Positions 2,805 to 59,061 of a stretch of 64,000 nt of DNA are shown here, piece by piece. Under the pieces are notes generated by a model, which saw only the letters and a program-made list of their open reading frames with translations, ran no database searches and had not been told where the DNA came from. Origin of the DNA: an uncultured archaeon (GTDB lineage Archaea > Asgardarchaeota > Lokiarchaeia > Sigyniarchaeales > SOKP01); assembly GCA_964525635.1 (NCBI GenBank), contig CAZGJX010000005.1, forward strand, positions 9,543 through 73,542, written 5' to 3'. Position 1 is the first letter of the stretch. Every line of letters starts with the position of its first letter. The position numbers and the translations under genes were made by a program.

Positions 2805-3740
2805 TTATTGAATTATTTGGTATATAAGATTCTCCATTTCGGGTTTTGCTGCTTCAATTTTATCTAAAACCTCAACAGTCTTTCCTAGATCCTTTTCATC
2901 TTCTTCAATAATGAATAAAAGATAGAAATCTAAATTACCAAAACTTAAAACTTCAATTACACCTGAGAATCTAAGACCATCTTCAAATTTATCTGAAAAT
3001 TCATAGAATGTACGATCTTCAGAGATAATTTTTTTTTGAATATTAATATAAGCATCATAAATTTTCATTTTTTCTTCAAGATGTAAATGAGGGCGATAAT
3101 ATTCACCTATTGTTATTCCTTTTATATCAAATAAAGCCATTAAGATTGCACTATAATGCTTACTAATTTCTTCGAATAATTGAGAAACCATCTCCATTTT
3201 ATTAAATAATAATGAAAGTCCACTGGAAAAGGCATCCATCACCGATTTTAGATCATAAATACTAGTCTCAAAAAAAAATATATCAAAATCATTAGAATAT
3301 TTGGTTAATGCTTGCTTAAGAGTTAGAGTTTTTTTATTGATGTCTTTATCTTCTGTCATTTCAGGATCAAATTTATGAAATAAAATTGCAATAGGGGGAT
3401 ATTCTTTTACTTCCTTAAAGAATAATAAAACTTGATCTAAATAATCAATAGTCTCAATATATCTATCAGGATCTTGCGCATCTATAACATAAAAAATTAA
3501 ATCTGCTCCACCTAAATATTTTCCAGGATTTTGCATATATTGCCGTCGATATTGCTGTTGACCTCCAAAGTCCATTCTCATAAATTCAACACCCAAGAAT
3601 TTAAACATATCTCTATCAATTCTTTTAGTTGGTAATAAATTTTTAACCTCTTCTTCAAAACCAAATCTCTTGGTTATAGCTGTAATTATGGATGTTTTGC
3701 CTGCATTATCTAATCCTAAGAAGCATATCTTTTTTGGCAT
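2805..3740 (-). CDS. Small GTPase (Rag/Gtr- or Arf-like) with a C-terminal roadblock/longin-like domain
   Basis: G1 GLDNAGKTS, G3 DFGGQ, G4 HKFD, G5 TSIYD, plus an alpha/beta extension of about 130 aa. The start is probably ATG 3740 (MPKKICFLG) rather than 3818. Confidence 0.85.
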   Translation of the reverse strand: MPKKICFLGLDNAGKTSIITAITKRFGFEEEVKNLLPTKRIDRDMFKFLGVEFMRMDFGGQQQYRRQYMQNPGKYLGGADLIFYVIDAQDPDRYIETIDYLDQVLLFFKEVKEYPPIAILFHKFDPEMTEDKDINKKTLTLKQALTKYSNDFDIFFFETSIYDLKSVMDAFSSGLSLLFNKMEMVSQLFEEISKHYSAILMALFDIKGITIGEYYRPHLHLEEKMKIYDAYINIQKKIISEDRTFYEFSDKFEDGLRFSGVIEVLSFGNLDFYLLFIIEEDEKDLGKTVEVLDKIEAAKPEMENLIYQIIQ

Positions 3741-3885
3741 TTTTAATCCCAAATTAAATGATTTATATTTATAATCTTTATATAAATGGTTATATTTTAT
3801 AAATTTATATTTAATCAATTCTGAGATGTTTTTATTATTTATCTTTTTAAAATGAAATCTTCAAATAGTCAAATCTATTTTATTT

Positions 3886-9497: not shown

Positions 9498-10070
9498 ATG
9501 ATTAGATCCTTTATTGCTTTTGATCTCGAAAACAAGACAACTATTAAGAAAATTGATATTTTTTCAGAACGAATAAAAGAATTTCAACAAGGTGTAAAAC
9601 TGGTAAAACCCGAGAATATCCATCTGACTATGAAATTCCTTGGAGAAATAAAAGAATCAGTCGCTTCAAAAATCTATAAAATTATAGATAAAGAAATTAA
9701 TGAAGAATTTTTTTCTGATAAACCTATTATTTACAATCTGAAGGGTGTTGGGAATTTCAAGAATTTTTCAATAATTTGGATAAAAATAGAAGGAAATAAT
9801 GAATTATTGCAACAAATTAAGAATATAATTGAAGAAGAACTTTACAAGCAATTAAAAATTAAAAAGGATGAACGCCAACAATTTAATCCCCATATAACAA
9901 TTGCAAGATTGAATAGAAAGAAAATAAATTATAGAACTTTCAATGATTTCAAAGAAGAAATTAAACAAAATAAAAATAAAGATTTTGGAGAGTTCTATAT
10001 AAAAAAAATAAAACTGAAAAAATCAGTTCTTACACCTAAAGGTCCTATATACACTGATTTAGTTTATTAA
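9498..10070 (+). CDS. thpR: RNA 2',3'-cyclic phosphodiesterase (2H family, ThpR/LigT)
   Basis: RSFIA N-terminus, two HxT motifs (HLTMKFLG, PHITIAR) and C-terminal SVLTPKGPIY. Confidence 0.92.
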   Translation: MIRSFIAFDLENKTTIKKIDIFSERIKEFQQGVKLVKPENIHLTMKFLGEIKESVASKIYKIIDKEINEEFFSDKPIIYNLKGVGNFKNFSIIWIKIEGNNELLQQIKNIIEEELYKQLKIKKDERQQFNPHITIARLNRKKINYRTFNDFKEEIKQNKNKDFGEFYIKKIKLKKSVLTPKGPIYTDLVY

Positions 10071-10119
10071 ATGAAAAAAAATAGATTAAAAGCAATAGTC
10101 TGGGATTTAGATGTTACAA

Positions 10120-10420
10120 TTATTTATTTAAATATTTATGAATTTCTTTATCTAATTTACTTTTTACAGAATCTAAACCTTCGACTACAATTCTTCTTAC
10201 TTTATTATAATTTTTGAAGACTTTATGTAATTTATACTCTTGTGAGACTGTTGGATGCAGTCTAAATTTGATAGTTTGCCTCATTTATATATATAAGTGG
10301 AGTATAGGTATTTAAATAAAGAATAAAGATAAAAATAAAAAGATGAAGAGTGCAAACAATTTTTGATTTTTATCTTTATTTATAAGAATTTATATAATTT
10401 CAGCGAACTGTTGATACAAT
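10120..10420 (-). mobile_element. IS200/IS605-family remnant: 5' end of tnpB with upstream TATA-like box and AT-rich hairpin
   Basis: Minus-strand ORF 10284-10120 begins MRQTIKFRLHPTVSQEYKL (TnpB/OrfB N-terminal pattern). TTTAAATA lies about 25 nt upstream. A 15-bp inverted repeat sits at 10322-10336 / 10366-10380. The boundaries are approximate. Confidence 0.65.
10123..10194 (-). repeat. 72-bp perfect inverted copy of 12570-12641 (3' end of the HIT gene)
   Basis: 10123-10194 is the exact reverse complement of AGAATTGTAGTCGAAGG...ATTTAAATAAA at 12570-12641. Confidence 0.95.
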
Positions 10421-10736
10421 ATATATATGTAAAAAACTTAAACTACTCCCAAATGAAATTATTGTAATTGGTGATACATCTCATGATATAGAATGTGCGT
10501 TAAGTGTTGGAGCTAAATCAATTGCAATTAAATGTGAAAAAACTAAATTCTTTGAAAGGGATATGTTCCAATATGCAAATCTTGTAATTGAACAAAGGGA
10601 TATTCCCCATGATCTAATTAACACAATAAAAACTTTTCTTTAAAAATATTAAAAACATTTTTAAGTAAATTATAGTAATATTGATATATTTTTAATATAT
10701 TATTTAAGATAATAAATTGAAGATTTAATGAACTAA

Positions 10737-11015
10737 ATGATAAAAACTAAATATAACTTAGATGTTTTAAAACCGCATCATCCGAGTAGTGATATGGTCG
10801 CTCGTGCTTTATTACAAATTGAGGGAGCTAAGGCGGTTAAAGTAAGTGTTGATGAATTAGATCAAAAAACAGCCTCTTTACATATTGAAATAGAGGGAAT
10901 TGATTTAAATCTTGATTTAATTTCTGAAACATTAGAAGAGTTAAACTGTGCATTGCATTCTGTAGATGAGGTTATATGCGAAAAAATAACGGATGAACAA
11001 AATTCCATTATCTAA
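10737..11015 (+). CDS. DUF211-family protein
   Basis: LDVLKPHHP...V.ELD..T..L.IEIEG...CALHSVDEV signature. Confidence 0.85.
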   Translation: MIKTKYNLDVLKPHHPSSDMVARALLQIEGAKAVKVSVDELDQKTASLHIEIEGIDLNLDLISETLEELNCALHSVDEVICEKITDEQNSII

Positions 11016-14692: not shown

Positions 14693-16222
14693 TCAATTTA
14701 TTTTAAGGGAAGGAATGTCTTTTAAAGATTGAGGAATTTTTTTTATTTTATTTCTTGCTATAGTTAATTCTTTTAATTTTAGTAAATTTCCGAAGGAATC
14801 TGGGAGATCTTCTATACTGTTATCTCTTAGACCTAAGAATTCTAAATTTTTAATCTCTCCAATTGATTCTGGTATTTTTCTTAATAATTTATTTTCTTGT
14901 AAGCTGAGACGCTTTAAATTTTTCAATTTACCTATATTAGAAGGAATCTTATTGATTTTATTATATCCTAAAAATAATTGCTCTAGATTTATTAAATCTA
15001 ATATAAATAATGGAAATATAGAAAGGTTATTATGACTTAAAGAAAGAAAATTTAAAGAAGTTAAATTTAAGAGATTTGGTAAGACTTCTAATTGATTATC
15101 ATCTAGATGTAATTCTTTTAGATTGGGGAGGTTATTTATTGACTGAGGAATCTTGTTTAACTTATTCCTACTTAAATTGAGAATTTCGAGGGATTTTAAA
15201 TTTCCGATGGTCTCAGGAATGTGGCTTATTTCGCATAAACTTAAATCGAGGTATTTTAACTGTGTTAAGTCTCCAAGAGATTTAGGAATTGAAACTTGAT
15301 ACTTACCAGAAAAATGGCTTAATTTTGCATTCTGAAGGTGCACATCTAAAACCTGCAATAACTTACATTTATTTATCCATTCAGGCACTTTAATAAGCTC
15401 ATTCTCACTAGCATCAAGCTCTTTAAGACGGAAATGAAGTATTTCTTTAGGTAATTCAGTAAGATATAATTTGCTCAAATCAAGCTTTCCTTTATTTACC
15501 ATTTTCGCGAGGACATCGATTTTCTCAGCTTTGGACAAGCGGAAAAATAGCTTCATTAACCAGTGTCTAGTTAGATATAAGTCTTTATGTCTGAGTAACG
15601 GTTTTAAGTCGAACAGATGAAGGATAACAGGTCTATGGAGTTCAGGACTTAAAAGGTCCAGAGCTCCTTCATGTAGCAATACAGCAATCATATCTATGTC
15701 GTTTCCCTCAAAAAAGCGTAGTAGAAGGGTGTCTTTTTGTTCTTGAGTGAGGTAGTTAAGAAATTTGCGCACTAAAAGATATTTAACAACATTTTTGCTT
15801 CTACTTTCGAACCTTCTGACAATCTCTTGCGGGAATTTAATTTTGGCCTTAGGGTCGCCGACGTCAACGAGTTTTCTCAGGAGTGGGAAGGCGAGATTGC
15901 TGTGGAGGAGGCGAGTATCGTAATCATGTTCGGCCCACACTTGGAGATTTGAGCAGTGAGCCCAGAATTCAACTTGAGGGGGTATTTTAACGGTGGTCTC
16001 TTTTGGTCGTTCTAGAATTGAGTTGAGGTGCTCCTTCGCATCGTCGATGGAGTCAATTTTTTCGAATTCTTCAATCTTATTGGCGGGTATCGACAAAAGC
16101 AGGTATTTACACTGTAGAAACCTTTCATTATTTACAAATATGACTGTTTTTCCATCTCTGAGCTTTAAGGTGATAAATTCATTTATTTTAAATTCTGGCG
16201 AGGGTGGAATATATACAGTCAT
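14693..16222 (-). CDS. Leucine-rich repeat protein with a Lokiarchaeia-type N-terminal domain
   Basis: N-terminal FKINEFITLKL...QCKYLLL...EFWAHCSNLQVW...LLHSNLAFPLLRKL...GDP, followed by about 11 LxxLxLxxNxLxxLP repeats. Confidence 0.9.
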   Translation of the reverse strand: MTVYIPPSPEFKINEFITLKLRDGKTVIFVNNERFLQCKYLLLSIPANKIEEFEKIDSIDDAKEHLNSILERPKETTVKIPPQVEFWAHCSNLQVWAEHDYDTRLLHSNLAFPLLRKLVDVGDPKAKIKFPQEIVRRFESRSKNVVKYLLVRKFLNYLTQEQKDTLLLRFFEGNDIDMIAVLLHEGALDLLSPELHRPVILHLFDLKPLLRHKDLYLTRHWLMKLFFRLSKAEKIDVLAKMVNKGKLDLSKLYLTELPKEILHFRLKELDASENELIKVPEWINKCKLLQVLDVHLQNAKLSHFSGKYQVSIPKSLGDLTQLKYLDLSLCEISHIPETIGNLKSLEILNLSRNKLNKIPQSINNLPNLKELHLDDNQLEVLPNLLNLTSLNFLSLSHNNLSIFPLFILDLINLEQLFLGYNKINKIPSNIGKLKNLKRLSLQENKLLRKIPESIGEIKNLEFLGLRDNSIEDLPDSFGNLLKLKELTIARNKIKKIPQSLKDIPSLKIN

Positions 16223-16278: not shown

Positions 16279-19200
16279 TTAAATTCTGAATATGGAATTC
16301 CATGCTTCAGCAAACTCCTTTAGTAATGGTAGGGTGTACTCGATATTCCCATAAAATTGAGGATAAGCCACATGAATTTTTCTCAACTCTCTCAAGCTTT
16401 TTTGAAGGTCGCTAATTAGATCATCGTATCCTCCAATATATTCAATTCCCCGTGGAGTAGGTCCTTCATTACCGCCAAATATTTCCGTCTTTTTAAACTG
16501 TCCACCGTAATAATCGATAAGGGTTATGAACAGATCCTGTTCCTTATGTGGGACTATTGCGAAAGAATCTCCTTGAAGGAATAAGCTCATAATCAAGCTA
16601 AGATCAAAATCTTTAATAGTCAATTTGTTTGCATCGACTTGATTTTCTTGTATTGTAAAGACCATATGGGGATCCGCATCGAAACGGCTATTCCAATAGT
16701 ATTTATCAAGGGTCCATCCAGAATCGCCGCTAAGTTTCCGAATTTGCTTATATGTTTTTTTATATTGCTCAATAATGTTGGTTAGCTTATTTGTATAACT
16801 TTTATCCTGAATAAATCCATCTTTACTTTTCTTTAAAGGCACTAAATATACAGTTCCATGGGTGATAGCAGCTTTAGCGATTAATGTTTGGAATGCTTTA
16901 ACAAAATTGATTATTTCTTCTTTTTGATAAGTTAATCGTGTATTGATGTTTTTATCTTGTTTTCCGATGGTTATTTTAATAAAGCTTGAGAGAAATTGAC
17001 CATCATCATAAAATAGGCTTGCTTCATGTCTGAAATGCTCATCTGTTAGATGGAGTACGAAGATATCATCCAACTGATTTGGATCAGGATCTAAGCTAAA
17101 GTCAAGAGGTGCTGGAAATCCTTTCTTATAAAGCAGAGCATTTTTAAATAGTTTTCTTATCTCGGGTCTTTTCCTAATATTTAAGATATAATCAAGGCGA
17201 TCTCGAACTATTGCTTCATAATATTTTTGATTATCTTTGAAGAATTTCTCTTCATTATCCTCTTTATTAAATTTTTTACCTACCTGACTGTTCCAAATCG
17301 TCATAAGTTTATCCAGTATGTTCGCCATAGCGCTGCACTGTATATCTTCTATTGAGGTGTCTGGACTCCACTCTTTATATTGAGCTGCTATTGTCTCTAT
17401 TAAATAGTCTGAATATTGATTGGCAGTAATTGGGTTGAATTCTCTATTCTTTTCTTCGGACGTCTCTAATAATTTATTATTTATGTCGGCAATTGAAGGA
17501 TTGGAGGAATCCCAAGTACTCGAATCTAGAATATTCATTGCGTCTATATATTTAGTATTTCCTGAGATTTCTATAGCGATTTTAACGCCTGCTATTACTG
17601 AACCTAAAAGATAATCTATATAATCATCCTTATATTTTGAATCTACATATTCCATGAGAAAGGAGAGCCTTTCTAGATTTTTTAAAATTAAATGATTTTT
17701 TCCTAAATTTTGATCTAAAATTTTTCTTTGAAGGGAGAGGGGGATAAGCACGCCATCCTTAAACATTGCGCTTCCTTCAAGCATTTTCAAATAGGTAATT
17801 CTTCCAAGTATTGCTACAACTAATCTATGTAACTTCTGAGCTTTTCCAAGAGTCTCATCAGTCCATTCATCTGTAAAACGATTGTTTTCTTCAAAGACAA
17901 AATTGTCTATTAATTTATCCATTTCTTTAAACTCAGGAGAGTCCTTTTTATTTTCTTTATACTTCTTTAATGTATCCCACATAATGGCCGTCCATTTTTT
18001 AACATCTTGCTTCCCATCAAACTTAAGATTCTCGATTAGGCGTTCTTTTCCTTTAAAATCATTGAAAAACATATTATCTGAGAGTGTATTGTAAATCTCT
18101 TCATAATTCTGAGGATCTAAGTTGTATGCTACTGTTTTTATTATATGATCCAAACGTTGTTCAACAATGTCCTTCTTTATATTATTCCAATCAGCATATT
18201 GTTGGTTTGTTATGTCTGTTGCGAAAATCTTTATAGTAGTTGATGTATAGTGGTATATATATCTAAATATTCCATTTCGGAATGCGATTGATTCTTGGTT
18301 GCTTTTCATATTTTTTGGAAAATTCTTATTTACATATTTTACGATAGAATCTGATTTTCTTGGGAGACTTTTATATTTTTCGAACAACCATGTCCTGTAA
18401 TCAAATTTGTGACCTTGCCATAAATACGTAGAAGTTAATTGGAATTCGAGGGAAATTGCGTTTTTAGTATTTCCAAATCCGCTATGTAAGAAAAGAATCG
18501 GTTGTATAGCACCCTCCATTCCCTCTTTATTCTTCTCTTTTTTCCATAGATTTTTATCTTCAAACCAATTTAGCCCTCTATCTTTGACATCTTTATCAAT
18601 AATTAGCCATCTGCTTTCTAATACATTGGAGTTCTCATCAGTGACCATGAACATCTGCGATATTTGCAGGGTATCTTTCTCGTCATAATAAGCATAACCT
18701 AAATGCCAGTCTGAAATATCTTGTCCTTTTGCTGGAGTATATTGACCTTTTTCATTGATTTCCATTCTTATAAATCGATTTATGATATCTTTTCCTTCTA
18801 GCTTAAAAGCCCATGCATAGGAACCATCCATCATTCCTGTTGTATCATCTATTTTAATATCATTTTTTCTATTAGTCACACTATTTTCTTTAATTTCTAA
18901 AGGTATTTCATCATATGGTAATTTTCTATTAGATGGATAATAAAATCCTAGCATATTATTAGAGGTAATTCCATATCGAGTTGTCTTAGTTTCTTTATCA
19001 AAATATTCTCCATAATAATCACTCATAGAATTATCAGTAGCGAGAATTTCAAGAAGATATTTTTTTAATTCCTTTTTTTCATTCCTAAAATCTTTAATCA
19101 GAGGCTTTCCTACTTGTTTTTCTTGTATTTCATTAAAGGTTGTTTCTATTTCTTGCCAATTTTTATCTTCCTCAATGAATTGTTTTAGTTTTAAGCGATA

Positions 19201-22200
19201 ATTATTTTTGCTGTTGTCGTCATTAGATTTAATCTCTTCCCAATCTTTAGTAATTTCATGAATTGTCTCAAAAGCCACTTGTTCAATGAAGAGGGATGGG
19301 ATTGCTTTAAAAATTCTTTCACTAATAAACGATACTTCTTTACGACCTCCTAACTCCCCTGGAACTTTCATAAGAAAAAGTTTATTACCTATTACTTTAC
19401 CAAATCCATCTAATGTTGTCAGACGCTCACCAGTCTCAGAATCAACAAAATCTTCGTCACCAAAGAAGGCAGCATTGGCTATAACTCTAGCAGTAGTCTC
19501 TTTATTTATTTTTGTCTTATAAAGAGTAGAATAAAATATCATCCTGAATATATCATTAATAATTCCCGTTTCACTGATATCTTTCCCTCCCCGACCATAT
19601 AATCCTTTCCTAACCATTTTGGATGGAGATCCAATAATGATATACTTAGCTTCCTTACCATCTCCTATGTCTATAATATGTAATCCTTTCATATCAACTA
19701 TTTTAATACCCTTTATTACGAATGGTTTACTTTCTGAAAGAATTTGTCTTCCTTCAAGAGTAAAAGATTCTTCTTGAGTATCAAGAATAATAGGATTAAT
19801 AATTGTATATCTTTTACTTAAAATTTCTTTTATATCATCGATATCTGAGTTATCCAGATCAAAAGTACGAGCAAGTTCATCAAAAATTTCTTTCGGTAGG
19901 AGGAGTGACGTTGCTAAAGTTTCAAGGTTAGCACCTTCAACACCTATATATTGTCCTAAATCGACAAATTTATAAGCTTCTTTTAGTGTCTTGTAATCTT
20001 CAACCATTAATATTCCTGGTGGTAGGAATATTGATCCAATGAATGCCTGATAAAGTAAAAGATTGGGATCAAGCTTTTTATTTTCCGCATAAATATTTCC
20101 TAAATTATAATTTTCTTCGAGTAAACAAGAGAGGATTCTACTTAACCTGTAATATATTTCTCCTTGATTCTCTTTGGAGTTAGGATCGAGCTCATAAGTA
20201 GGAATTCCATCTTCAAAAGGTATACTATATAATTGAATAAATAACAATTTCATAATATTTTTTCTTAATGCTATTTCAGCAGTTGTTTTTCCTGTTCTTG
20301 TATCATATTCCTTGGTAATTACATCAAAAATATACTGTGCCAATGCTGTATAAAATTTATTTTCATTTTTCTTTTCATTTTCATTATCTGACTCAGCAAG
20401 ACCTACATATAAAGTCTCAAGCACCGTTCTAACTCTTTTTTTAACATTTTCATAATTAAAGTCCTGAGTACCTTCAATGATTTTGTCTGCAAGTTGACCC
20501 AATTTGAGAGCAAATTCACCAAAATTCTCATAATAATTCTTTTCGTCATCTTTATGATATTTTTTTCTTGCTTTTTCAATAGAATCACTAAGTTCTTTAG
20601 TATTGAAGATCCTCTCAAGATTTCTAGGATTTCCCTTTGTAGGATCACTGGCTACAAATCCCATGAATCTATCCAAGAAATACTCTATTGCTTCTATTTC
20701 TTCTATATTTTTCCCAAGGGGCTCAAGAGCTTCCCTTGTCTCCCTCTCTAGTTTTGTGCGAATAGATATCCCAGTTCCTATAGTCTCTTCTATATTCAAT
20801 ATATCTACACTTATACAACCCTCAATGTTCGCAAATCCGAAATAAGTCGCAATTTTAGAAAGTGTTGTAGTCTTATCGATAAATTTAGTATTTCCAAAAG
20901 AATCAGTGAATTCTAAATTAAGATCAATCTTCACTCCTTCTGCTTCAATTTGTATTTGTGCCAATGATAACTTATCCCTGAGTTTTTGAATTACAACTGC
21001 CTTTAATTCATTAATGGTATATTCTCCTTTTACAGGAATTTTTAACATTAAATCTTCTATGTATATCTCCTGATATTCACCAGATTCCTCATCAATATCG
21101 GCTTCCCTATTCACTTCTATAACACTATTTTTTCCCTCTACCTTCTGTGAACTATCAATAGATTCACTAATTTCCTTAATTTGTTTAATATTTTCTTGAT
21201 TCATTTCTAATTTTTCCTTGATTGCCTGAGCTTTTAATAATTCTTCTATATTAGAAAGGGGGCTTTCTTTTTTGGACCTACCTTTCTCAGGCATGCCTTC
21301 CCTATCAATAGCTAAGACTGTACTAGAAGTTGCAGAATAGGCGGCAATTTTATTATTTACGTTATTAAAAACTCTTACTTGTTGCTGTTCATCAGTCTCG
21401 GGTACAACAGGAATTGTAGGCAGTCTTTTCAAATCCTTAACAACACTATCATCAATTAATACTCTAGTATTAAGCATTAAACCTGGCTTCTTAAGACTTG
21501 AAATAACGTCTTTAAATCTCATTCTGTTATTAAGGTGAATCTGGTATGTGTGCAATAATTTCATATCAACATTATCCAGAAATTTCGAGTAGATATATTC
21601 TAAGGCAAGAGTCGAGCCTAAAGCTGAGAGACTCGGTATAAATAGGGTTAGCCCACTTGCAATAAAGAGAGCTGAAAGTTTCTTAATTGTTGGAACTGTC
21701 GCTTCCTTGCCGAAAATCTGTAGTTCGGAAATCATAGCTAAAATTGCTTCCCGTTTCTGTAGCATAACCTGTTCTTCTGATATACCGCTTGATTGCAGTA
21801 CTACATTATTTAACCAATTTTGAAAGTCCTTATTAGATTTCATTGCAACAAAAATCTGAGCATTATAGGAAAGGGATTGCTGTGAGATTTGTGCTCCTGT
21901 ACCGCTGGTAAGGAATCCAAAGAATTTGGTCTCTCTTGCACTTGTCGCAAATGTGCTTAACCAGAAGCCAAGCTCATCAGACCAGCCCATGGTTCTCGCT
22001 ATACTCCCAACGACAGTCTCAATAACTCCATCTATGATGACTTCTTGCATAACTTCTGAGACTGTGCCTACAGCGGTTCTCACCGCCATCTGAGTTAATA
22101 GATTTTTTATAATTTGCTGTGATGTTACTCTCTGAATTTGAGATGCCATTATTGAATTCAAGGCCTGCATCGCCACTTGTTTTCCTGCCATTGCCGCGGC

Positions 22201-25200
22201 CTCTGTGTATGCCTGTTTTGCAACTCCGGTTAAGTATGAGCCCAAAATGATTAGCGGAGTGGATATAATAGTCGATTGTAAGGTGAGATCCTTTGTGTAT
22301 TTCATTTCAGCGACCATTCCCGCTGACTGTGTTGCAAATGAATACTGATTAAAATAGTCCATAACCATATGAGAAGTTATCTGAGTTAAGGCAAGTTTTG
22401 CTGTCTCTTCTGTGGTGTCAGGGATTATCTTTTCGAATTCAATTTGAATTTTATAATAATATGTACCTGATGTGTATGCGTTAAGTGTGATTAATTCATT
22501 AATAGGTGTCATGAAATATAGGTCTCCAGAATCTAATACATAATCAGAATCAGAAATCTCAAGAGGATCACCTATTTGTGTGCTATCTTTATATAAATAC
22601 AATAAAATCTGTGATATAGGATATTCAAATCCGCCGATTTTAGAGGCTAATGGAATTTTGTCTTTATAATCCATAGTAATTTCCTCTTTTGAGAGCTCCT
22701 GAGTAGTAATTCCCCTAGTATTTTCTATTTGGGGAAGGGCAACCTCTATTGTAAGATATCCTGTCGTTAAATCATATTTCCTCAATTGGTCATAATGATC
22801 TTGGTCGACCACCAAAGGTTTATAAAGAGCTTCATTAAATCCTCCTTCTATATCTGAGAAAATATAGGTTGGAGCACCATCGATACAGGTTGGGATCACC
22901 GAACTAAGTGTTCCATTCGTCTCCCTAGAGATGGCATAGCTCACATATCCAAGCGTATTTTCCTGATATTGTGTATATAAATCTGTAGAACCTCCACTTT
23001 GGTGGTACCTATAGAATGGGATGTCATTATATGTATAGAGCTCACTTGAGACTAAAAAGAAATCTAAATTCTTATGATCAAAAGGTAATTGCTCGTCTGG
23101 GGGAGTAAAATCTATAAGCCCTCCTGTTAGTAGAAAACTGGCAAGATTAGAATATACACTTACAGCCCTATCTCCATTTGGAGGGGACGCTATAACATGG
23201 GCAGTATAATCATTTCCAGGATTGCCCCCCACCACTCTTGTATAATAAGCCCCTGTATGCCCTGTCAGCGCTGCTGGAAGGCTCTCACCCCAGAAATCGT
23301 CCCAGTAGTCTTTCTCATTAAGAGATTTGGGACTTCTTCTATTTACATTCTCAGGATAGAAAGTGTCTGCGGTCTGAACTGAGGTCATTTCATGCATTTT
23401 CAAATCCATAAAATATTTAGTAAGCAGGGAATACACAGCAAAATAGGCAGCATGAGCTAAACTTGTTGCTGTGCCATATGATAAAATAGTAATTAATGAG
23501 CTTGCAGCAGAAGCGATTAACGTCGACAGTACCTGCTCTCCTACATCTCCTAAAAATTGAGCATCATATTCTTTCCAGATTCTACTATATTCTCGCTTCC
23601 TGGCTTCATAGAATAATTGAGGATATTTCGAGATTTGACTGCTCCTATTAACCAATTTTCTCACTTCAAAGATATGGTCTTTTGCAACCAGTCCATCGTC
23701 TATATTTACTGGAAAAAGTAATCTCTCATTATCTAATCTTTCATATTTATATCTCCAGTTCGAGCCATATATTTTATGACCTTCCTTTGAAAGAATGTCG
23801 GTATAATCATCTCTAAGAGTCTCATATGGGCTTTCTACCTGTTTCCTAATATACGGACAGAAGCTATATTGCGTGGGAGTCCCGTAAATATATCCAACTG
23901 AAATTACGTTATACTTGCCATCACAGTTACTATCATTTTCAACAATATAGACAACATCATATAAGCCATCACTGTTGGAGTCTACATAAAAGTAGCTACC
24001 GGATGTCTTGGCGCCCCAACTATTTTTAAATGAGTCCTTGTCAGAGGTGTAATATACCCGTCCATCCGGAGGGGTTATAAACACTCCCGTAATAGCAAGT
24101 TCAACATCTCCCACAGCATTCGAACCTTTATTGTAGTCGTAATAGGTGCTAAATCTATTGGGAAGGACAAGGGTAATTTCTGTCTCATAGAAATTGACGA
24201 TCTCATCACTTCCATCCTCATTTAAAATTTGAATTGAATCGTATTTTATTGGGATTGCATCTTTTCCATAATCTTGCCAAGTCTCTTGTGTATAACCATT
24301 TATAGTTATAGGGGTATAAATAGCATTTGCTACGTTAAGAGAGACTTCGGATTCGACACCTAATTCAAGATCCCTTATTATACGCTTTCCTTCTCTCGCT
24401 AAATTAAAAGACATTCCAATTTGTCCATCATCAAAGAGATCGCGATAACTTCTAATTGAGATTACTTCTCCTTTCTCAAATTCCTGAACTGTAATAACCT
24501 CTGACTTCACATCTTCCTTAAGAGATTCTACTCCCAATTGAGTATATTTTCTATAGGTTGCCTGTAAAGTAGATTCTAATCCAGGATAAAGATAGGTAAA
24601 TCCATCTGGGTAATCAAAATCATAGTTATCTAATTTTTCTTCAGTTAAGATTTCATTAAATATTGCATCTTCTCCACCTCCTCCGCACAATCGATCCCAA
24701 GAGGCAACCGTATAATCTACGATGTAGTTTTTCACATTCCTTGGCTTACCAGCAATTATTGCTCTCTCTTCCTTATAATTCTTTACGTGAGATATTGTAG
24801 TCTCGCTTTCATAGGTTATTTTCTTATCTGCATATGAATCGCGGTCCTCATCAACAGAAATCATATAATATTTTGAGGTAATTTCTCCGAAAATCTGAGT
24901 AGAATCCTGCATAAACTTTTGAGCATAATAATCCACATCAGGGAGAAAGATTCTGGCTACTGTCTCGAGCAAGGCAAGAGTGTTAAATATTCCGAATCCA
25001 AGCCCTAAGATTGTGGCTAAATTAAATTCATAGTCAGCAAATAAGCTATCGTCGATATCGAACCATTGCGTTCTCATTACCTTTCCTTGCGAAATATTGA
25101 AGAAAGAAGATGTAAGTGTTGAGTCTTGAATAATGGTATGCCAAATAATACTATTTTCTGTAGCATTGAGAAATCCGTATTTTGTGATATCAAATACGCC

Positions 25201-54456: not shown

Positions 54457-57400
54457 TCATTCAAACGTATCTCTCGGAGCTACTCCAATAAAACTGTTTT
54501 GATTAATACGATCCTCATGATTTATATAATTAAATTGAATTGATGTATTGAAATGATTAATTGAAAAAGGTTTGTTAAAAAAGCTATATACTTCATTTTG
54601 AACTTTATCAACACCCCGCACTATAAAATAATAATTACCATCTGGGAGTGTTCTACTATCAATCACATATGAGTAATAATCGCGATCCTCATAATAAGAA
54701 TTAATGAGATGCCAGGAGGCTATGTCTGGATTTTCTAATTCTGGATAAGATTCTGACAAGTAAAACTCTAGTGAAGTAATCTCTTTCCCCAGATTATAGG
54801 ACTGAAAATTGATATACCCATCAACTATTTCATTGTTGATAATTGCCGCCCAACTTCCATCAACATCCTTAAGTACAGAAGAATTTACAAGTAATTCTAG
54901 CCCGATATAATCATCAATTTCCAAATTCATTAGTGCTGTATTAAAAATAGCTATTTCATCCATTTTTCCTGCATAATAACTATTTGAGGTTAATTCGCCT
55001 CCAAATATTAGGGCTCCTCCGCTCGTAATTGTATTATTAGCTACTAACCATGGTTCTGCCATCCCCCCTTCTGCTGCATAATACCACATATCTTTAATAT
55101 ATACGTCAACATCGCTGTTATTAAATCGAAGAATAACAAGTTGCCATTCATTTTCTTTAATTGATCCTATATCTCCATACTGCGCTGTTGCAGCTATATC
55201 TGTAGTGTTTAAGAACGCTTGGACATAACCTGTCTCAGAGATGCCCAACTCAAACATATTTCTCTTCGATAGAAATACATTTTTAATCCCATTATTGCTT
55301 ACAGCATCAGAACTTAGATTTGTAGGATAGATCCAAGATAAAATAGTGAATTCTGAGCTATTATAGAGTTCAGAATCTAAAATCTCACCAAAATCAATAT
55401 AATCACTCTCACCATCAAATTCAACTCCTCCTCCATGTTTTCCAATTGTCCAAAATGTATCACCTGCTAATAATCCTTCATACTCATTTATTGAATCATA
55501 TGTTTGCTGACCGTAACTCTCCAAAAATTCCGCTTTAAAAATTAAATTGTCAATATAAGTGTGGGAAATATCTGGAATTGTGCGAAATGATTTTAATAAT
55601 TGAGAAAATGTAAAAGTCCATTCGTCAGGGATAAGATCTCCATTATGATCAATAAAAAATCTTTCCTCTTCAGATACTCCACTTAACCCTGCGTATTCCT
55701 CATGTAGCAGACGTTTATAGAGGTCATCTCCATCATAAGCTATTTTTGAAAGAGCATTCGTTTCAAAATAGCCGTATACTTTATGGATGTAAGCAAGATG
55801 ACCATATTTATCCGTACTTACAGTATTGATTAATTTATATCTATTATTTACTTCTAGATATAATTTAATACCATCTAACTGGACGCCCTTTCCTCTGGAA
55901 TCCACTATTGTGCAGTTCCACATAACAGTCCAAGAGCTATCTTCATTTTCAAAGGTAATTATAGCTCCTGCATCAAGACCATTTCGATTATAAAACTCCG
56001 ATGGCCTTACTGATAACTGATCTCTTTCAAGGGTGATTTGATATGTTACAACTTGAGAAGAATGCCATGAGAACCATTGATATTTTTTAAGGTAACCTTT
56101 TAGTTCATAATCCCCGGGTAAAAGATTGTAGTTATCAAAGAAGAGATCATTATAGAGCTTTATTTCCTCTTTAGGACCGTTTACAATACCAGATTTAAGG
56201 TTATATGAGAATTGCAGTTCTCTTCCTGCTTTATTACTGATATTTTGAGGAGTTAGGGTAAATAATAACTGCGAAGATTGACTTAATGCTAAATCAGTCT
56301 CTGTTCTTGCAATTAGTCTATCATTTATAGATAAGGGTTCTAACTCACTTAGATATCCATACTCGAGATCATCATAATTTTCCGAGCCATATCGAGCGAA
56401 TTCTATTTTTGGTTGGTCTATATTTACAGTAAAAGGAATTGATGCCAGCCACGGCACAATCATTAAAAAGATTAATATTAAGTACGCATATGCTTGAAGC
56501 TTTCCATCTAAGCGCCCTTGTAATCTTTCCCTTATACTCTTACTTTTTCTTTTTGCTCTAATATGGCATTTTTTGGTAAATATAACTCCTGGAATAAGTA
56601 AGAGGAGAAGAAAAATTATAGTATAGACCGGAAAGATAAAAAAGATGACAATTGCCCCTAAGCAAAGAGAAAAAGAGGTGATCAATAAATAATTCGTCTT
56701 TTTTATATGGTATTTGTGTGGAAATATAAAATATAAATAATTACTAATAAAATTCCTTTTTCTATATAAGGTTTCTGTAATTATAATTGTAATTAGAAAT
56801 ATAGCAATAAAAGAAAAATAATCCTGTACTTGAACTAGAAAATATAAAATATTTCCTAGGATTATATCAAAAGCAATTAATATAATTGACATTATCTTGA
56901 ATTTCTTTATAGAACTAATCCTTTCTATTAAATATAGATTTAAAATAACTACAGCAATAAACATGATCAATATTGCTCTTGAGTTATTCCCAATTTGCCC
57001 TAACTGAGAAAAATAAAAGGAAATACATATTACACTCGAAGTTATTAAAAGAATAACTGAGGTGAGGAGTAAATTTTTATCTTTTACCTTATTTCCTTTT
57101 TGATTTTTCAAGTAAATGAAATTAGCGCATAAAAATATTGTCGTAAAAATAGATAATGCCCAAAGGATGCCAAGAAAGAGAAAAAATAACCCCAGACTAA
57201 ATTCTATTATACTGGAAATATAGAGGAATTTTATACATTTATTGCTTAACCTTTTATTATTTCTATATAGGTATAGACATATAGAAAAATAGAGAAACTC
57301 AATAGAGAACCATAAAAATCTATACTCCATATTTAAACTTAATAAAGTGGATATTTGCTTTGTGAGATCAATCTGTTCACTTTTGAAAGGTATAGCAGAT

Positions 57401-59061
57401 AATACGGAGATCGCAGAAAATATCAAGACAAAGAATATGAATAAAGATGCTACTAATGGGAATAGTATAGATATAATATTGTATGCTGTCGTATTTGATT
57501 TAGATCCCTTAAATATCGATATAATTTTGGCTTTTTTCTTTTTACAAGTGTCTCTAATTGTTAGGCACTTTGTCTTTAAGGAAGATTTTATGTTATCTTT
57601 TAATTCTATGATAGTAAAATATATTCTTTTTAGGAAATTTTTTGAATCAATTTTAAATACTTTAAAGTTAAAATCTTTCATATGTTGATTTATTCTTTCT
57701 ATTTTTTGAATAAAGAAAAAATCGACTATACTATAAAGCAGAAGGGATAAAGTGTTCTCTTTTCTTTCTTTTTTTAAAAAAAATATTATATTTTGATTTG
57801 AAGAAAATGATTTAGGTTTTTTTGAACACCTTTTCCTTATAAAATAATTGAATCTCTCTAAAAAGCGTTTATATATTTCCTTAACATACCATTTAAAAAA
57901 CTGAAAATACAGGCTGATATTTAAGATTTTATTGGATAACGCATCATTTTTTCTTGTTTTCTTAAAAAAGAATATTATATTTTTATTTGAAGAAAATGGT
58001 CTGAATTTTTTTGAAAACTTTATTTTTATAAAAAAATTGAATTCCTCTAAAAAGCGCTTGTATGCCTCCTTGATATACCATTTAAAGAACTGAAAATACA
58101 GGTTGATATTTAAGATTTTATTATGGAAAAAGGTCTTGAATTTTTCTAGATATTGGTTAATTTTTTTTACATAATAACTTAAAAAAGAATAATAAAAGCT
58201 CAAAATAAGAAGAAAAAAGAGATTTCTTGTTCCTTGATAAAAAAATAATATTTTGTTATGCGATGAAAGGTGATGAAAGGTGATATTTTCGATATAATTA
58301 TGCTTAAAGCTTGCAAATTTCTTTTGTATCTTTTGTGGAGTGGATTTTATCTTTCTTTTTGTCTTGAAAATTGAATTTTTTCTATAAGATTTATCATAAA
58401 TAGCTTTAATTTCCCGAAGAACTTTTTCAAATGATTTTCTCTCTTTTTTAGGAGTCTTGGTTAGTAGTTCAAAATATATTTTAATTCTTTTGCAGAAATC
58501 ATATAAATTAACTTTTCTTGAATACTTGAGGAATTTTCTTATATTTTTTCCATTCTCAATATTATAGAGTAAATTATCAAATATTACCCTATATTCCTCA
58601 TCAGAACAGACACTATGATCTATTGTATTGTAGTGCTCCTTAATATATGCAAGAGAGTGGTTATATAATGAATTTAAAAGATTTAGTTCTTTATTCCCGA
58701 TCTTCATGAACCTCTTTAATTGGATATAAAACAAAGAAATAAAGATAACATCATTAATCTCATTTTTATTAAGCTCTCTGAAATTGAGGTGAGATCTTAC
58801 AAATTGAGATAAAATAGGTGAATAATATTGCTTTATATACTCTACTCTCTCGCTTTCTTTCTGTCTTAGTACTCTTTCCTTTTGTCTTCTCTCTTCTTCT
58901 ATTCTTTTCTGATAAATTGTCTTTTTTAAAGCAATTTGAGGATTAGGTTTAGAATTGAGTAGTCTGAGAGGAGTATAAATATCTTTATAAAAGATTATAT
59001 TTGGTATTGTACTATTTATTCTTTTTTTTTTTATTTTATCGAGGATAGTCTCCATATACAA
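54457..59061 (-). CDS. N-terminal part of the giant protein: basic head, about 11 TM helices, extracellular LamG domain
   Basis: K/F-rich first 520 aa; hydrophobic helices at about 57480-56430; LamG (GKHGGGVEFDGESDYI...FTILSWI...GKMDEIAIFN) at about 55550-54910. It ends at a TGA that is followed in frame by the next ORF. The start is TTG 59061 or ATG 59055. Confidence 0.9.
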   Translation of the reverse strand: MYMETILDKIKKKRINSTIPNIIFYKDIYTPLRLLNSKPNPQIALKKTIYQKRIEEERRQKERVLRQKESERVEYIKQYYSPILSQFVRSHLNFRELNKNEINDVIFISLFYIQLKRFMKIGNKELNLLNSLYNHSLAYIKEHYNTIDHSVCSDEEYRVIFDNLLYNIENGKNIRKFLKYSRKVNLYDFCKRIKIYFELLTKTPKKERKSFEKVLREIKAIYDKSYRKNSIFKTKRKIKSTPQKIQKKFASFKHNYIENITFHHLSSHNKILFFYQGTRNLFFLLILSFYYSFLSYYVKKINQYLEKFKTFFHNKILNINLYFQFFKWYIKEAYKRFLEEFNFFIKIKFSKKFRPFSSNKNIIFFFKKTRKNDALSNKILNISLYFQFFKWYVKEIYKRFLERFNYFIRKRCSKKPKSFSSNQNIIFFLKKERKENTLSLLLYSIVDFFFIQKIERINQHMKDFNFKVFKIDSKNFLKRIYFTIIELKDNIKSSLKTKCLTIRDTCKKKKAKIISIFKGSKSNTTAYNIISILFPLVASLFIFFVLIFSAISVLSAIPFKSEQIDLTKQISTLLSLNMEYRFLWFSIEFLYFSICLYLYRNNKRLSNKCIKFLYISSIIEFSLGLFFLFLGILWALSIFTTIFLCANFIYLKNQKGNKVKDKNLLLTSVILLITSSVICISFYFSQLGQIGNNSRAILIMFIAVVILNLYLIERISSIKKFKIMSIILIAFDIILGNILYFLVQVQDYFSFIAIFLITIIITETLYRKRNFISNYLYFIFPHKYHIKKTNYLLITSFSLCLGAIVIFFIFPVYTIIFLLLLLIPGVIFTKKCHIRAKRKSKSIRERLQGRLDGKLQAYAYLILIFLMIVPWLASIPFTVNIDQPKIEFARYGSENYDDLEYGYLSELEPLSINDRLIARTETDLALSQSSQLLFTLTPQNISNKAGRELQFSYNLKSGIVNGPKEEIKLYNDLFFDNYNLLPGDYELKGYLKKYQWFSWHSSQVVTYQITLERDQLSVRPSEFYNRNGLDAGAIITFENEDSSWTVMWNCTIVDSRGKGVQLDGIKLYLEVNNRYKLINTVSTDKYGHLAYIHKVYGYFETNALSKIAYDGDDLYKRLLHEEYAGLSGVSEEERFFIDHNGDLIPDEWTFTFSQLLKSFRTIPDISHTYIDNLIFKAEFLESYGQQTYDSINEYEGLLAGDTFWTIGKHGGGVEFDGESDYIDFGEILDSELYNSSEFTILSWIYPTNLSSDAVSNNGIKNVFLSKRNMFELGISETGYVQAFLNTTDIAATAQYGDIGSIKENEWQLVILRFNNSDVDVYIKDMWYYAAEGGMAEPWLVANNTITSGGALIFGGELTSNSYYAGKMDEIAIFNTALMNLEIDDYIGLELLVNSSVLKDVDGSWAAIINNEIVDGYINFQSYNLGKEITSLEFYLSESYPELENPDIASWHLINSYYEDRDYYSYVIDSRTLPDGNYYFIVRGVDKVQNEVYSFFNKPFSINHFNTSIQFNYINHEDRINQNSFIGVAPRDTFE
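57770..58122 (-). repeat. Two diverged tandem copies of a 189-bp (63-aa) coding repeat
   Basis: NKILNI.LYFQFFKWY.KE.YKRFLE.FN.FI....SKK...FSSN.NIIFF occurs twice; matching DNA starts at 57782 and 57971. Confidence 0.9.

Follow-up and report, generated by a model that had tools for sequence, protein, structure and literature searches.

A very large archaeal protein with a possible ubiquitin-like domain just ahead of its C-terminal tail raises the question of whether that domain is a tag from which the tail is released by cutting. The protein is encoded by a 12,721-residue open reading frame at positions 16279-54444 (minus strand) of the window, by which we mean the whole 64,000-nucleotide stretch of DNA that was analysed. 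The initial annotation had singled out a 102-residue peptide as following the ubiquitin pattern, and we confirm that this peptide is the translation of positions 20770-21075 (minus strand; residues 11,124-11,225), that it ends in G-T-G, and that it is in frame with the giant, with a charged linker before it and a tail of 1,496 residues after it. The segment is a probable degenerate beta-grasp domain derived from ubiquitin, with a hairpin that is PB1-like or inserted, and it has no diglycine in register. In our assessment the odds are even that it serves as the pre-cargo module in an Asgard giant resembling the polymorphic toxins, a captured and eroded ubiquitin that acts without being cut.

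Architecture of the giant reading frame

All parts of the system are encoded on the minus strand. An in-frame upstream reading frame of 1,534 residues with about eight hydrophobic (TM) segments (54457-59061) is followed by an acidic stalk that spans about 10,300 residues and bears sequons and LamG domains (23545-54444), and then by conserved, Ala/Gly-rich and moderately hydrophobic helices (21595-23544) that form a putative membrane-insertion or translocation region. Four moderately hydrophobic stretches lie within residues 9,808-10,943, N-terminal to the charged linker (21076-21594; residues 10,951-11,123) and the segment, and resemblance to the closest relatives stops inside this linker, near residue 11,035. 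The segment is succeeded by the variable tail, or cargo (16279-20769; residues 11,226-12,721), and an LRR gene (14693-16222) lies 56 bp downstream of the giant, in the position of an immunity gene. Close relatives are labelled Promethearchaeota or Lokiarchaeota.

A single TGA (54457-54459) parts the multi-TM anchor frame from the giant. Paralogues on contigs C21 and C63 read through this position, where they have Asn and Glu; joined in the same way, the anchor frame and the giant would comprise about 14,260 residues. Selenocysteine at the TGA is unlikely given the residues found in the paralogues. The codon may have arisen by recent nonsense mutation or may reflect faulty assembly, and this copy may be a broken allele on its account. 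Elsewhere in the window, positions 2805-3818 (minus strand) hold a gene for a Gtr1/RagA-type small GTPase, typical of Asgard archaea.

The slot, its modules and the fold of this copy

Relatives were sought with residues 10,680-10,850, a part of the conserved hydrophobic-helix region, as family anchor. Matches, which mark a giant-protein family of Promethearchaeota, occur in 44 of the 161 genomes searched in the class, almost all of them in a single family and often within reading frames of 9,000-20,000 residues, and metagenomes supply 52 further loci; at least six paralogues in the present genome share residues ~9,600-10,850 and are divergent thereafter. Slot content was read 170-500 residues past the anchor in a non-redundant set of 109 loci and, in addition, in genome G007, and the slot proved to be swappable. 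It holds a ThiS/SAMP-type domain in about 14 loci, a ubiquitin-type domain in about six, a degenerate ubiquitin-like group (n = 23) held together by its own HMM, and, in about 20 loci that were grouped by eye, a longer form of degenerate module that has an additional hairpin. An S24/S26 peptidase lies at or just past the slot in about eight members, and about 30 have no recognisable module, which implies that the module is dispensable. Pfam recognises ubiquitin (L075, 32 bits against a cut-off of 25.4), ThiS and S24 in slots, with L046 scoring 19.5 for ThiS, under the 22.5 cut-off. A tree built on the anchor contains at least 31 changes of module type and groups the giant (100/99) with L047, L053 and L054, whose modules are without exception long-type.

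Several other features were seen in the same region. The S24/S26 domains (signal-peptidase-like) occur in L051, L084, L088, L100, L112, L119, L148 and L149; most retain the Ser and His motif, and they are a possible self-cutting alternative to a ubiquitin-like tag. Just ahead of the slot module in L057, L065, L094, L163 and related loci there is a conserved Arg-Tyr-x-Asp-x-x-Gly followed by Asp-Pro, a stretch that resembles the autoproteolysis motif of the Rhs core; Asp-Pro also often precedes long-type modules. Another mobile module, helical and of about 90 residues, is found at or after the slot in L061, L091, L084, L088, L112, L134, L136 and L142 and often terminates in Met-Gly-Gly.

Sequence comparison shows many of the slot modules to derive from captured host ubiquitin or SAMP genes. 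The free ubiquitin on contig C105 matches the modules of L075 (2e-13), L097 (2e-10) and L048 (0.004), the free SAMP on C60 matches L046 (4e-15) and 12 other slot modules, and the module of L218, in which GG is kept, matches the free ubiquitin of the genome at 1e-16. Genome G007 contains six genes with a Loki ubiquitin in the slot (1e-11 to 5e-6 against free ubiquitin), the anchor being on the contig in three; these ubiquitins have inserts before the last strand, have lost GG, and are each followed by a different tail. In profile comparison, all four groups are linked to the ubiquitin set with initial scores of 22-24. The long group (to which the three closest relatives of this copy belong) aligns with the ubiquitin-derived profile that includes G007 at an hhalign probability of 78% (E 2e-5), a figure obtained with two borderline modules in the ubiquitin set and with a degenerate group chosen by eye. 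Most likely, this copy descends from a captured host ubiquitin gene and has kept the beta-grasp, while acquiring a hairpin and giving up the diglycine.

The free ubiquitin gene (G000:C105:6195-6489, plus strand; loci L190 and L192) itself carries a 31-nt insert that shifts its frame and forms a hairpin of bulge-helix-bulge (BHB) geometry, in which 3-nt bulges flank a 4-bp helix. Excision at the bulges restores the ubiquitin protein, which is uninterrupted in 18 of 19 relatives; the protein-coding gene is for this reason probably split by an archaeal BHB intron. The ubiquitin gene of L208 (G027:C61), which is of another family, is interrupted by a short insert that differs from this one and lies a few codons further downstream, possibly a second intron.

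As to whether this copy is a ubiquitin-like domain, the part of the initial claim that concerns the slot stands, since relatives have authentic domains of ubiquitin or SAMP origin at exactly this place, and for the copy itself we regard a beta-grasp fold of residues 11,124-11,225 as probable. Its resemblance to such domains exceeds chance by a modest margin. Summed pairwise scores of the segment against 20 same-slot, long-type modules give an empirical p of ~0.005-0.03 relative to genome windows. These scores exceed those of 97-99.5% of genome windows, fall within the range of other long-type members, and are equalled or beaten by 0-6 of 300 shuffles and by none of 69 tail windows. Alignment by hhalign with slot-ubiquitin profiles yields scores of 19.8 and 17.5; among controls, 31 tail windows peak at 15.6 and 4 of 250 genome windows exceed 17.5. 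The best HMM matches on the segment fall at the right slot position, but with E of 10-45, and the only ubiquitin-related Pfam match is to the ubiquitin-like model Dsc3_N (E 0.15), no Pfam ubiquitin or ThiS match being above cut-off for this copy. Iterated HMMs of the slot ubiquitin-like domains never recruited it, which is weak evidence given that leave-cluster-out runs also missed some slot members.

Structure prediction points in the same direction at low confidence. Without an alignment, AF2 models the segment as strand, long helix, strand, strand, short helix and strand (pLDDT 40, pTM 0.33), and among matches of this model in VIA (48,161 chains) beta-grasp domains account for 13 of the 16 best and for about 30 of the 50 best. 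They include PB1 domains, the UBLs of Rsa4, Ytm1, TONSL and TBCE, streptokinase and RAWUL, with Z of at most 4.6 and an rmsd of 3.3-4.7 over 66-89 residues, where unrelated models often reach a Z of 7-8. The MSA-based model (pLDDT 63, pTM 0.36, likewise not confident) adds a first hairpin and lacks the last strand, and its matches, again often beta-grasp, cover residues 1-48 only; its alignment had been picked for register and shortened C-terminally, and it added little.

An alternative is that the segment has no beta-grasp fold at all, and that the slot is occupied here by a small alpha/beta domain of unrelated origin, serving for entry or as a linker. The slot does take unrelated modules, and phmmer and profile searches with the segment gave no significant homologue in any collection searched: a class-wide genome search returned only molybdopterin-oxidoreductase noise, a search of 1.8 billion representatives only repeat artefacts, and word-index and metagenome scans nothing. 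Moreover, the models are of low confidence, Foldseek and Atlas structure searches gave nothing significant and placed DNA polymerase little-finger domains on top, and an ESM Atlas feature search gave no usable match for the segment. ESM features of a same-group module (L161) weakly resemble a CS domain, a match that was set aside for low recognition. Nevertheless, the order of secondary-structure elements and the beta-grasp enrichment come from an alignment-free model, and the pairwise scores to same-slot modules, the ubiquitin-like character of the weak Pfam match and the position of the best profile matches all run counter to this alternative, which we therefore consider unlikely, if of appreciable weight.

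The glycine motif and possible cleavage

The initial annotation equated the terminal G-T-G (20770-20778, minus strand; residues 11,223-11,225) with the GG of ubiquitin. Alignment on the last strand contradicts this, placing the GG register on E11219-E11220 or T11221-I11222 and G-T-G 1-5 residues beyond it, as part of a short Ile-Gly...Gly linker motif. Among the three closest relatives, Ile-Gly...Gly is common to the paralogue L047 and to L054 and is deleted in L053. Processable modifiers have Gly-Gly or JAMM-tolerated small residues four to five residues past the last strand; relatives L046, L097 and L218 have an intact GG there and this copy has neither arrangement, and the segment is not a member of that class.

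Cleavage after G-T-G by an Asgard JAB/MPN protease, with the segment serving as a functional ubiquitin-like tag that frees the tail, has to be weighed against these findings. The archaeal enzyme CsRpn11 makes its cut precisely behind GG; it accepts G78A, processes G77A slowly and leaves the precursors G77V, G78V and G78E uncut; moreover, it is specific for its cognate ubiquitin (PMC6043591). In this copy the residue before each Gly of G-T-G is beta-branched (Ile, Thr), which makes cleavage by a JAMM enzyme unlikely, and the register of GG is occupied by E-E or T-I. In addition to the deletion in L053, entire degenerate groups have no Gly at this point. The idea nonetheless draws support from the family: GG is kept in three relatives, GA, AA or AS stands at the module end in about 14 others with the same slot (the module of L126 ends in GA and that of L075 in AA), the Ile-Gly...Gly motif is shared by two of the closest relatives, and the S24/S26 peptidases at or after the slot in some members suggest that the slot is concerned with cutting. 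Among 16 intact modules, G or A occupies one model column in 12, against a background of 10%, and each neighbouring column in eight, an enrichment that is partly inherited from GG.

The host, an Asgard archaeon, has JAMM genes, its genome containing six Prok-JAB matches over cut-off. In the products of its free ubiquitin and SAMP genes one residue stands beyond GG, and they need trimming. Free Loki ubiquitins mostly have 0-3 residues beyond GG, so that an enzyme cutting there should exist. On balance, release by a JAMM enzyme is plausible for family members ending in GG, GA or AA and unlikely for this copy. With the glycines out of register, the motif deleted in a close relative and the corresponding CsRpn11 mutant precursors uncut, the proposal of a built-in processing tag is unsupported here, and we regard cleavage after G-T-G as improbable.

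Tail exchange, probable export and a putative contact weapon

Pfam finds no match in the 1,496-residue tail, and thus no recognised toxin domain, and its first 475 residues are unmatched in the 160 other genomes searched. Tails are exchanged at the end of the module. In 14 of 23 pairs that share a module but not a tail, the resemblance breaks off no more than 12 residues from the module end, the median being +1 residue for pairs that are not independent, and the C-terminus of the module is consequently a common swap point. LAGLIDADG (3), GIY-YIG and PBECR1, which include nuclease-type domains, are found in at most 5 of 102 tail ends.

N-glycosylation sequons are avoided in this region. Across slot and tail in 109 loci we count six sequons where ~664 are expected (ratio 0.009), the reversed and spaced control motifs numbering 677 and 676; the ratio is 0.89 in TM-less proteins, 0.85 in partner genes and ~1 in stalks. 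This protein has no sequon from residue 10,951 onward, with 10.4 expected in the tail. Because a cytoplasmic domain would gain nothing from such avoidance, we infer that the tail passes the glycosylation machinery on its way out of the cell and has to stay bare in order to thread through a membrane.

These ratios bear on a further alternative, in which the giant would act as a Notch-like receptor for the cell that makes it: its distal helices would span the producer membrane, and module and tail would be a cytoplasmic signalling domain released at home. Tails rich in Lys and Glu, HTH and nuclease-like domains in some tails and a cytoplasmic LRR partner would suit such a receptor. However, the tails, at 0.009 against 0.89 for TM-less proteins and 0.85 for partner genes, appear to pass the glycosylation machinery, the helices are just moderately hydrophobic, and tail polymorphism and orphan cassettes of tail plus LRR also argue against a receptor, which we judge to be very improbable.

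A partner gene follows the giant in the same orientation, and in 31 of 84 relatives, too, an LRR gene comes next. On contig C96 of the genome there is an orphan cassette (G000:C96:11552-15459; L052), a stop-broken copy, 53% identical, of tail residues 11,953-12,719, which is followed by a close homologue of the LRR gene. With its conserved N-terminal and central parts, exchangeable C-terminal cargo, co-oriented gene of putative immunity role just downstream and orphan cassettes, the giant has the architecture of a polymorphic toxin system and probably works like one, its toxicity being putative.

The sections of the bacterial survey considered here (PMC3482391) describe CdiA-CT/CdiI, Rhs and MafB systems that similarly have an anchor, a long adhesive stalk, a pre-toxin or processing module, variable C-terminal cargo, a downstream partner and orphan cassettes. 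LRR proteins are among the immunity proteins listed in those sections (Zhang et al. 2012, PMC3482391); the processing modules named there are HINT, caspase, ZU5, MCF1-SHE, subtilisin and PT-VENN, JAB is treated as a toxin domain, and no ubiquitin-like release module was found in them. The Asgard giants differ in being archaeal, in their length of 11,000-20,000 residues, in their multi-TM anchor, and in a pre-toxin module that is either an S24/S26 peptidase or a gene for ubiquitin or SAMP that has been captured. No description of captured ubiquitin or SAMP in this role was found in the literature searched, coverage of which was incomplete.

Two known uses of ubiquitin-like domains provide comparisons. 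Eukaryotic ubiquitin-ribosomal protein fusions carry ubiquitin N-terminal to a passenger. The same order is seen in the ubiquitin and SAMP precursors of the CsUb/CsRpn11 system (PMC6043591), and by analogy a cut after the diglycine would be expected in giants that keep GG. Unlike these precursors, the Asgard domain is internal, lying ~11,000 residues from the start of an exported protein, and this copy lacks an in-register diglycine. Integral, non-cleavable UBL and PB1 domains (Rsa4, Ytm1, TBCE, Cdc24 and NBR1 PB1) likewise lack GG and give the best matches to the model (Z 3.5-4.6), although these matches are weak and are of structure, not of sequence, and the setting here is a secreted archaeal giant. 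The UBLs of Rsa4 and Ytm1 are handles for the AAA+ protein Rea1 (PDB titles 6qta and 6qtb).

We propose that the giant would be anchored in the producer membrane and exported, and that upon contact with a neighbouring cell its helical region would insert into the neighbour's membrane, allowing module and tail to thread into the cytoplasm. In members ending in GG, GA or AA, a JAMM/Rpn11 enzyme of the target might then free the tail, a step to which, at the level of the family, we give slightly less than an even chance. This copy would more likely remain uncut, and might act as a ratchet by virtue of its small size and fast folding, or else offer a handle to an AAA+ unfoldase or proteasome of the target. 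The module would also mark the recombination boundary for tail exchange, and the LRR protein, as putative immunity, would shield the producer. More tentatively still, the whole may be a widespread contact weapon of Loki-type Asgard archaea, in which the archaea's own ubiquitin and SAMP genes have been captured time and again as release tags, the victim's own Rpn11/JAMM enzyme or unfoldase arms the toxin, and this copy represents a late, eroded stage.

If this is true, killing would be confined to cells with a cognate ubiquitin system, and the ubiquitin, SAMP and JAMM proteins of Asgard archaea would acquire a role in cell-to-cell conflict. Asgard giant genes and the LRR expansion, which have been described without known function (PMC8813620; bioRxiv 10.64898/2026.10.28.762692), would gain a job, in the case of the LRR genes for part of their expansion. 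The significance is carried mainly by the family and less by this eroded copy. The tail ends of the family form a natural series that runs from GG through GA and AA to none. The family also shows how, in a single lineage near the eukaryotes, ubiquitin may change from a modifier that can be cut off to a domain that stays part of its protein.
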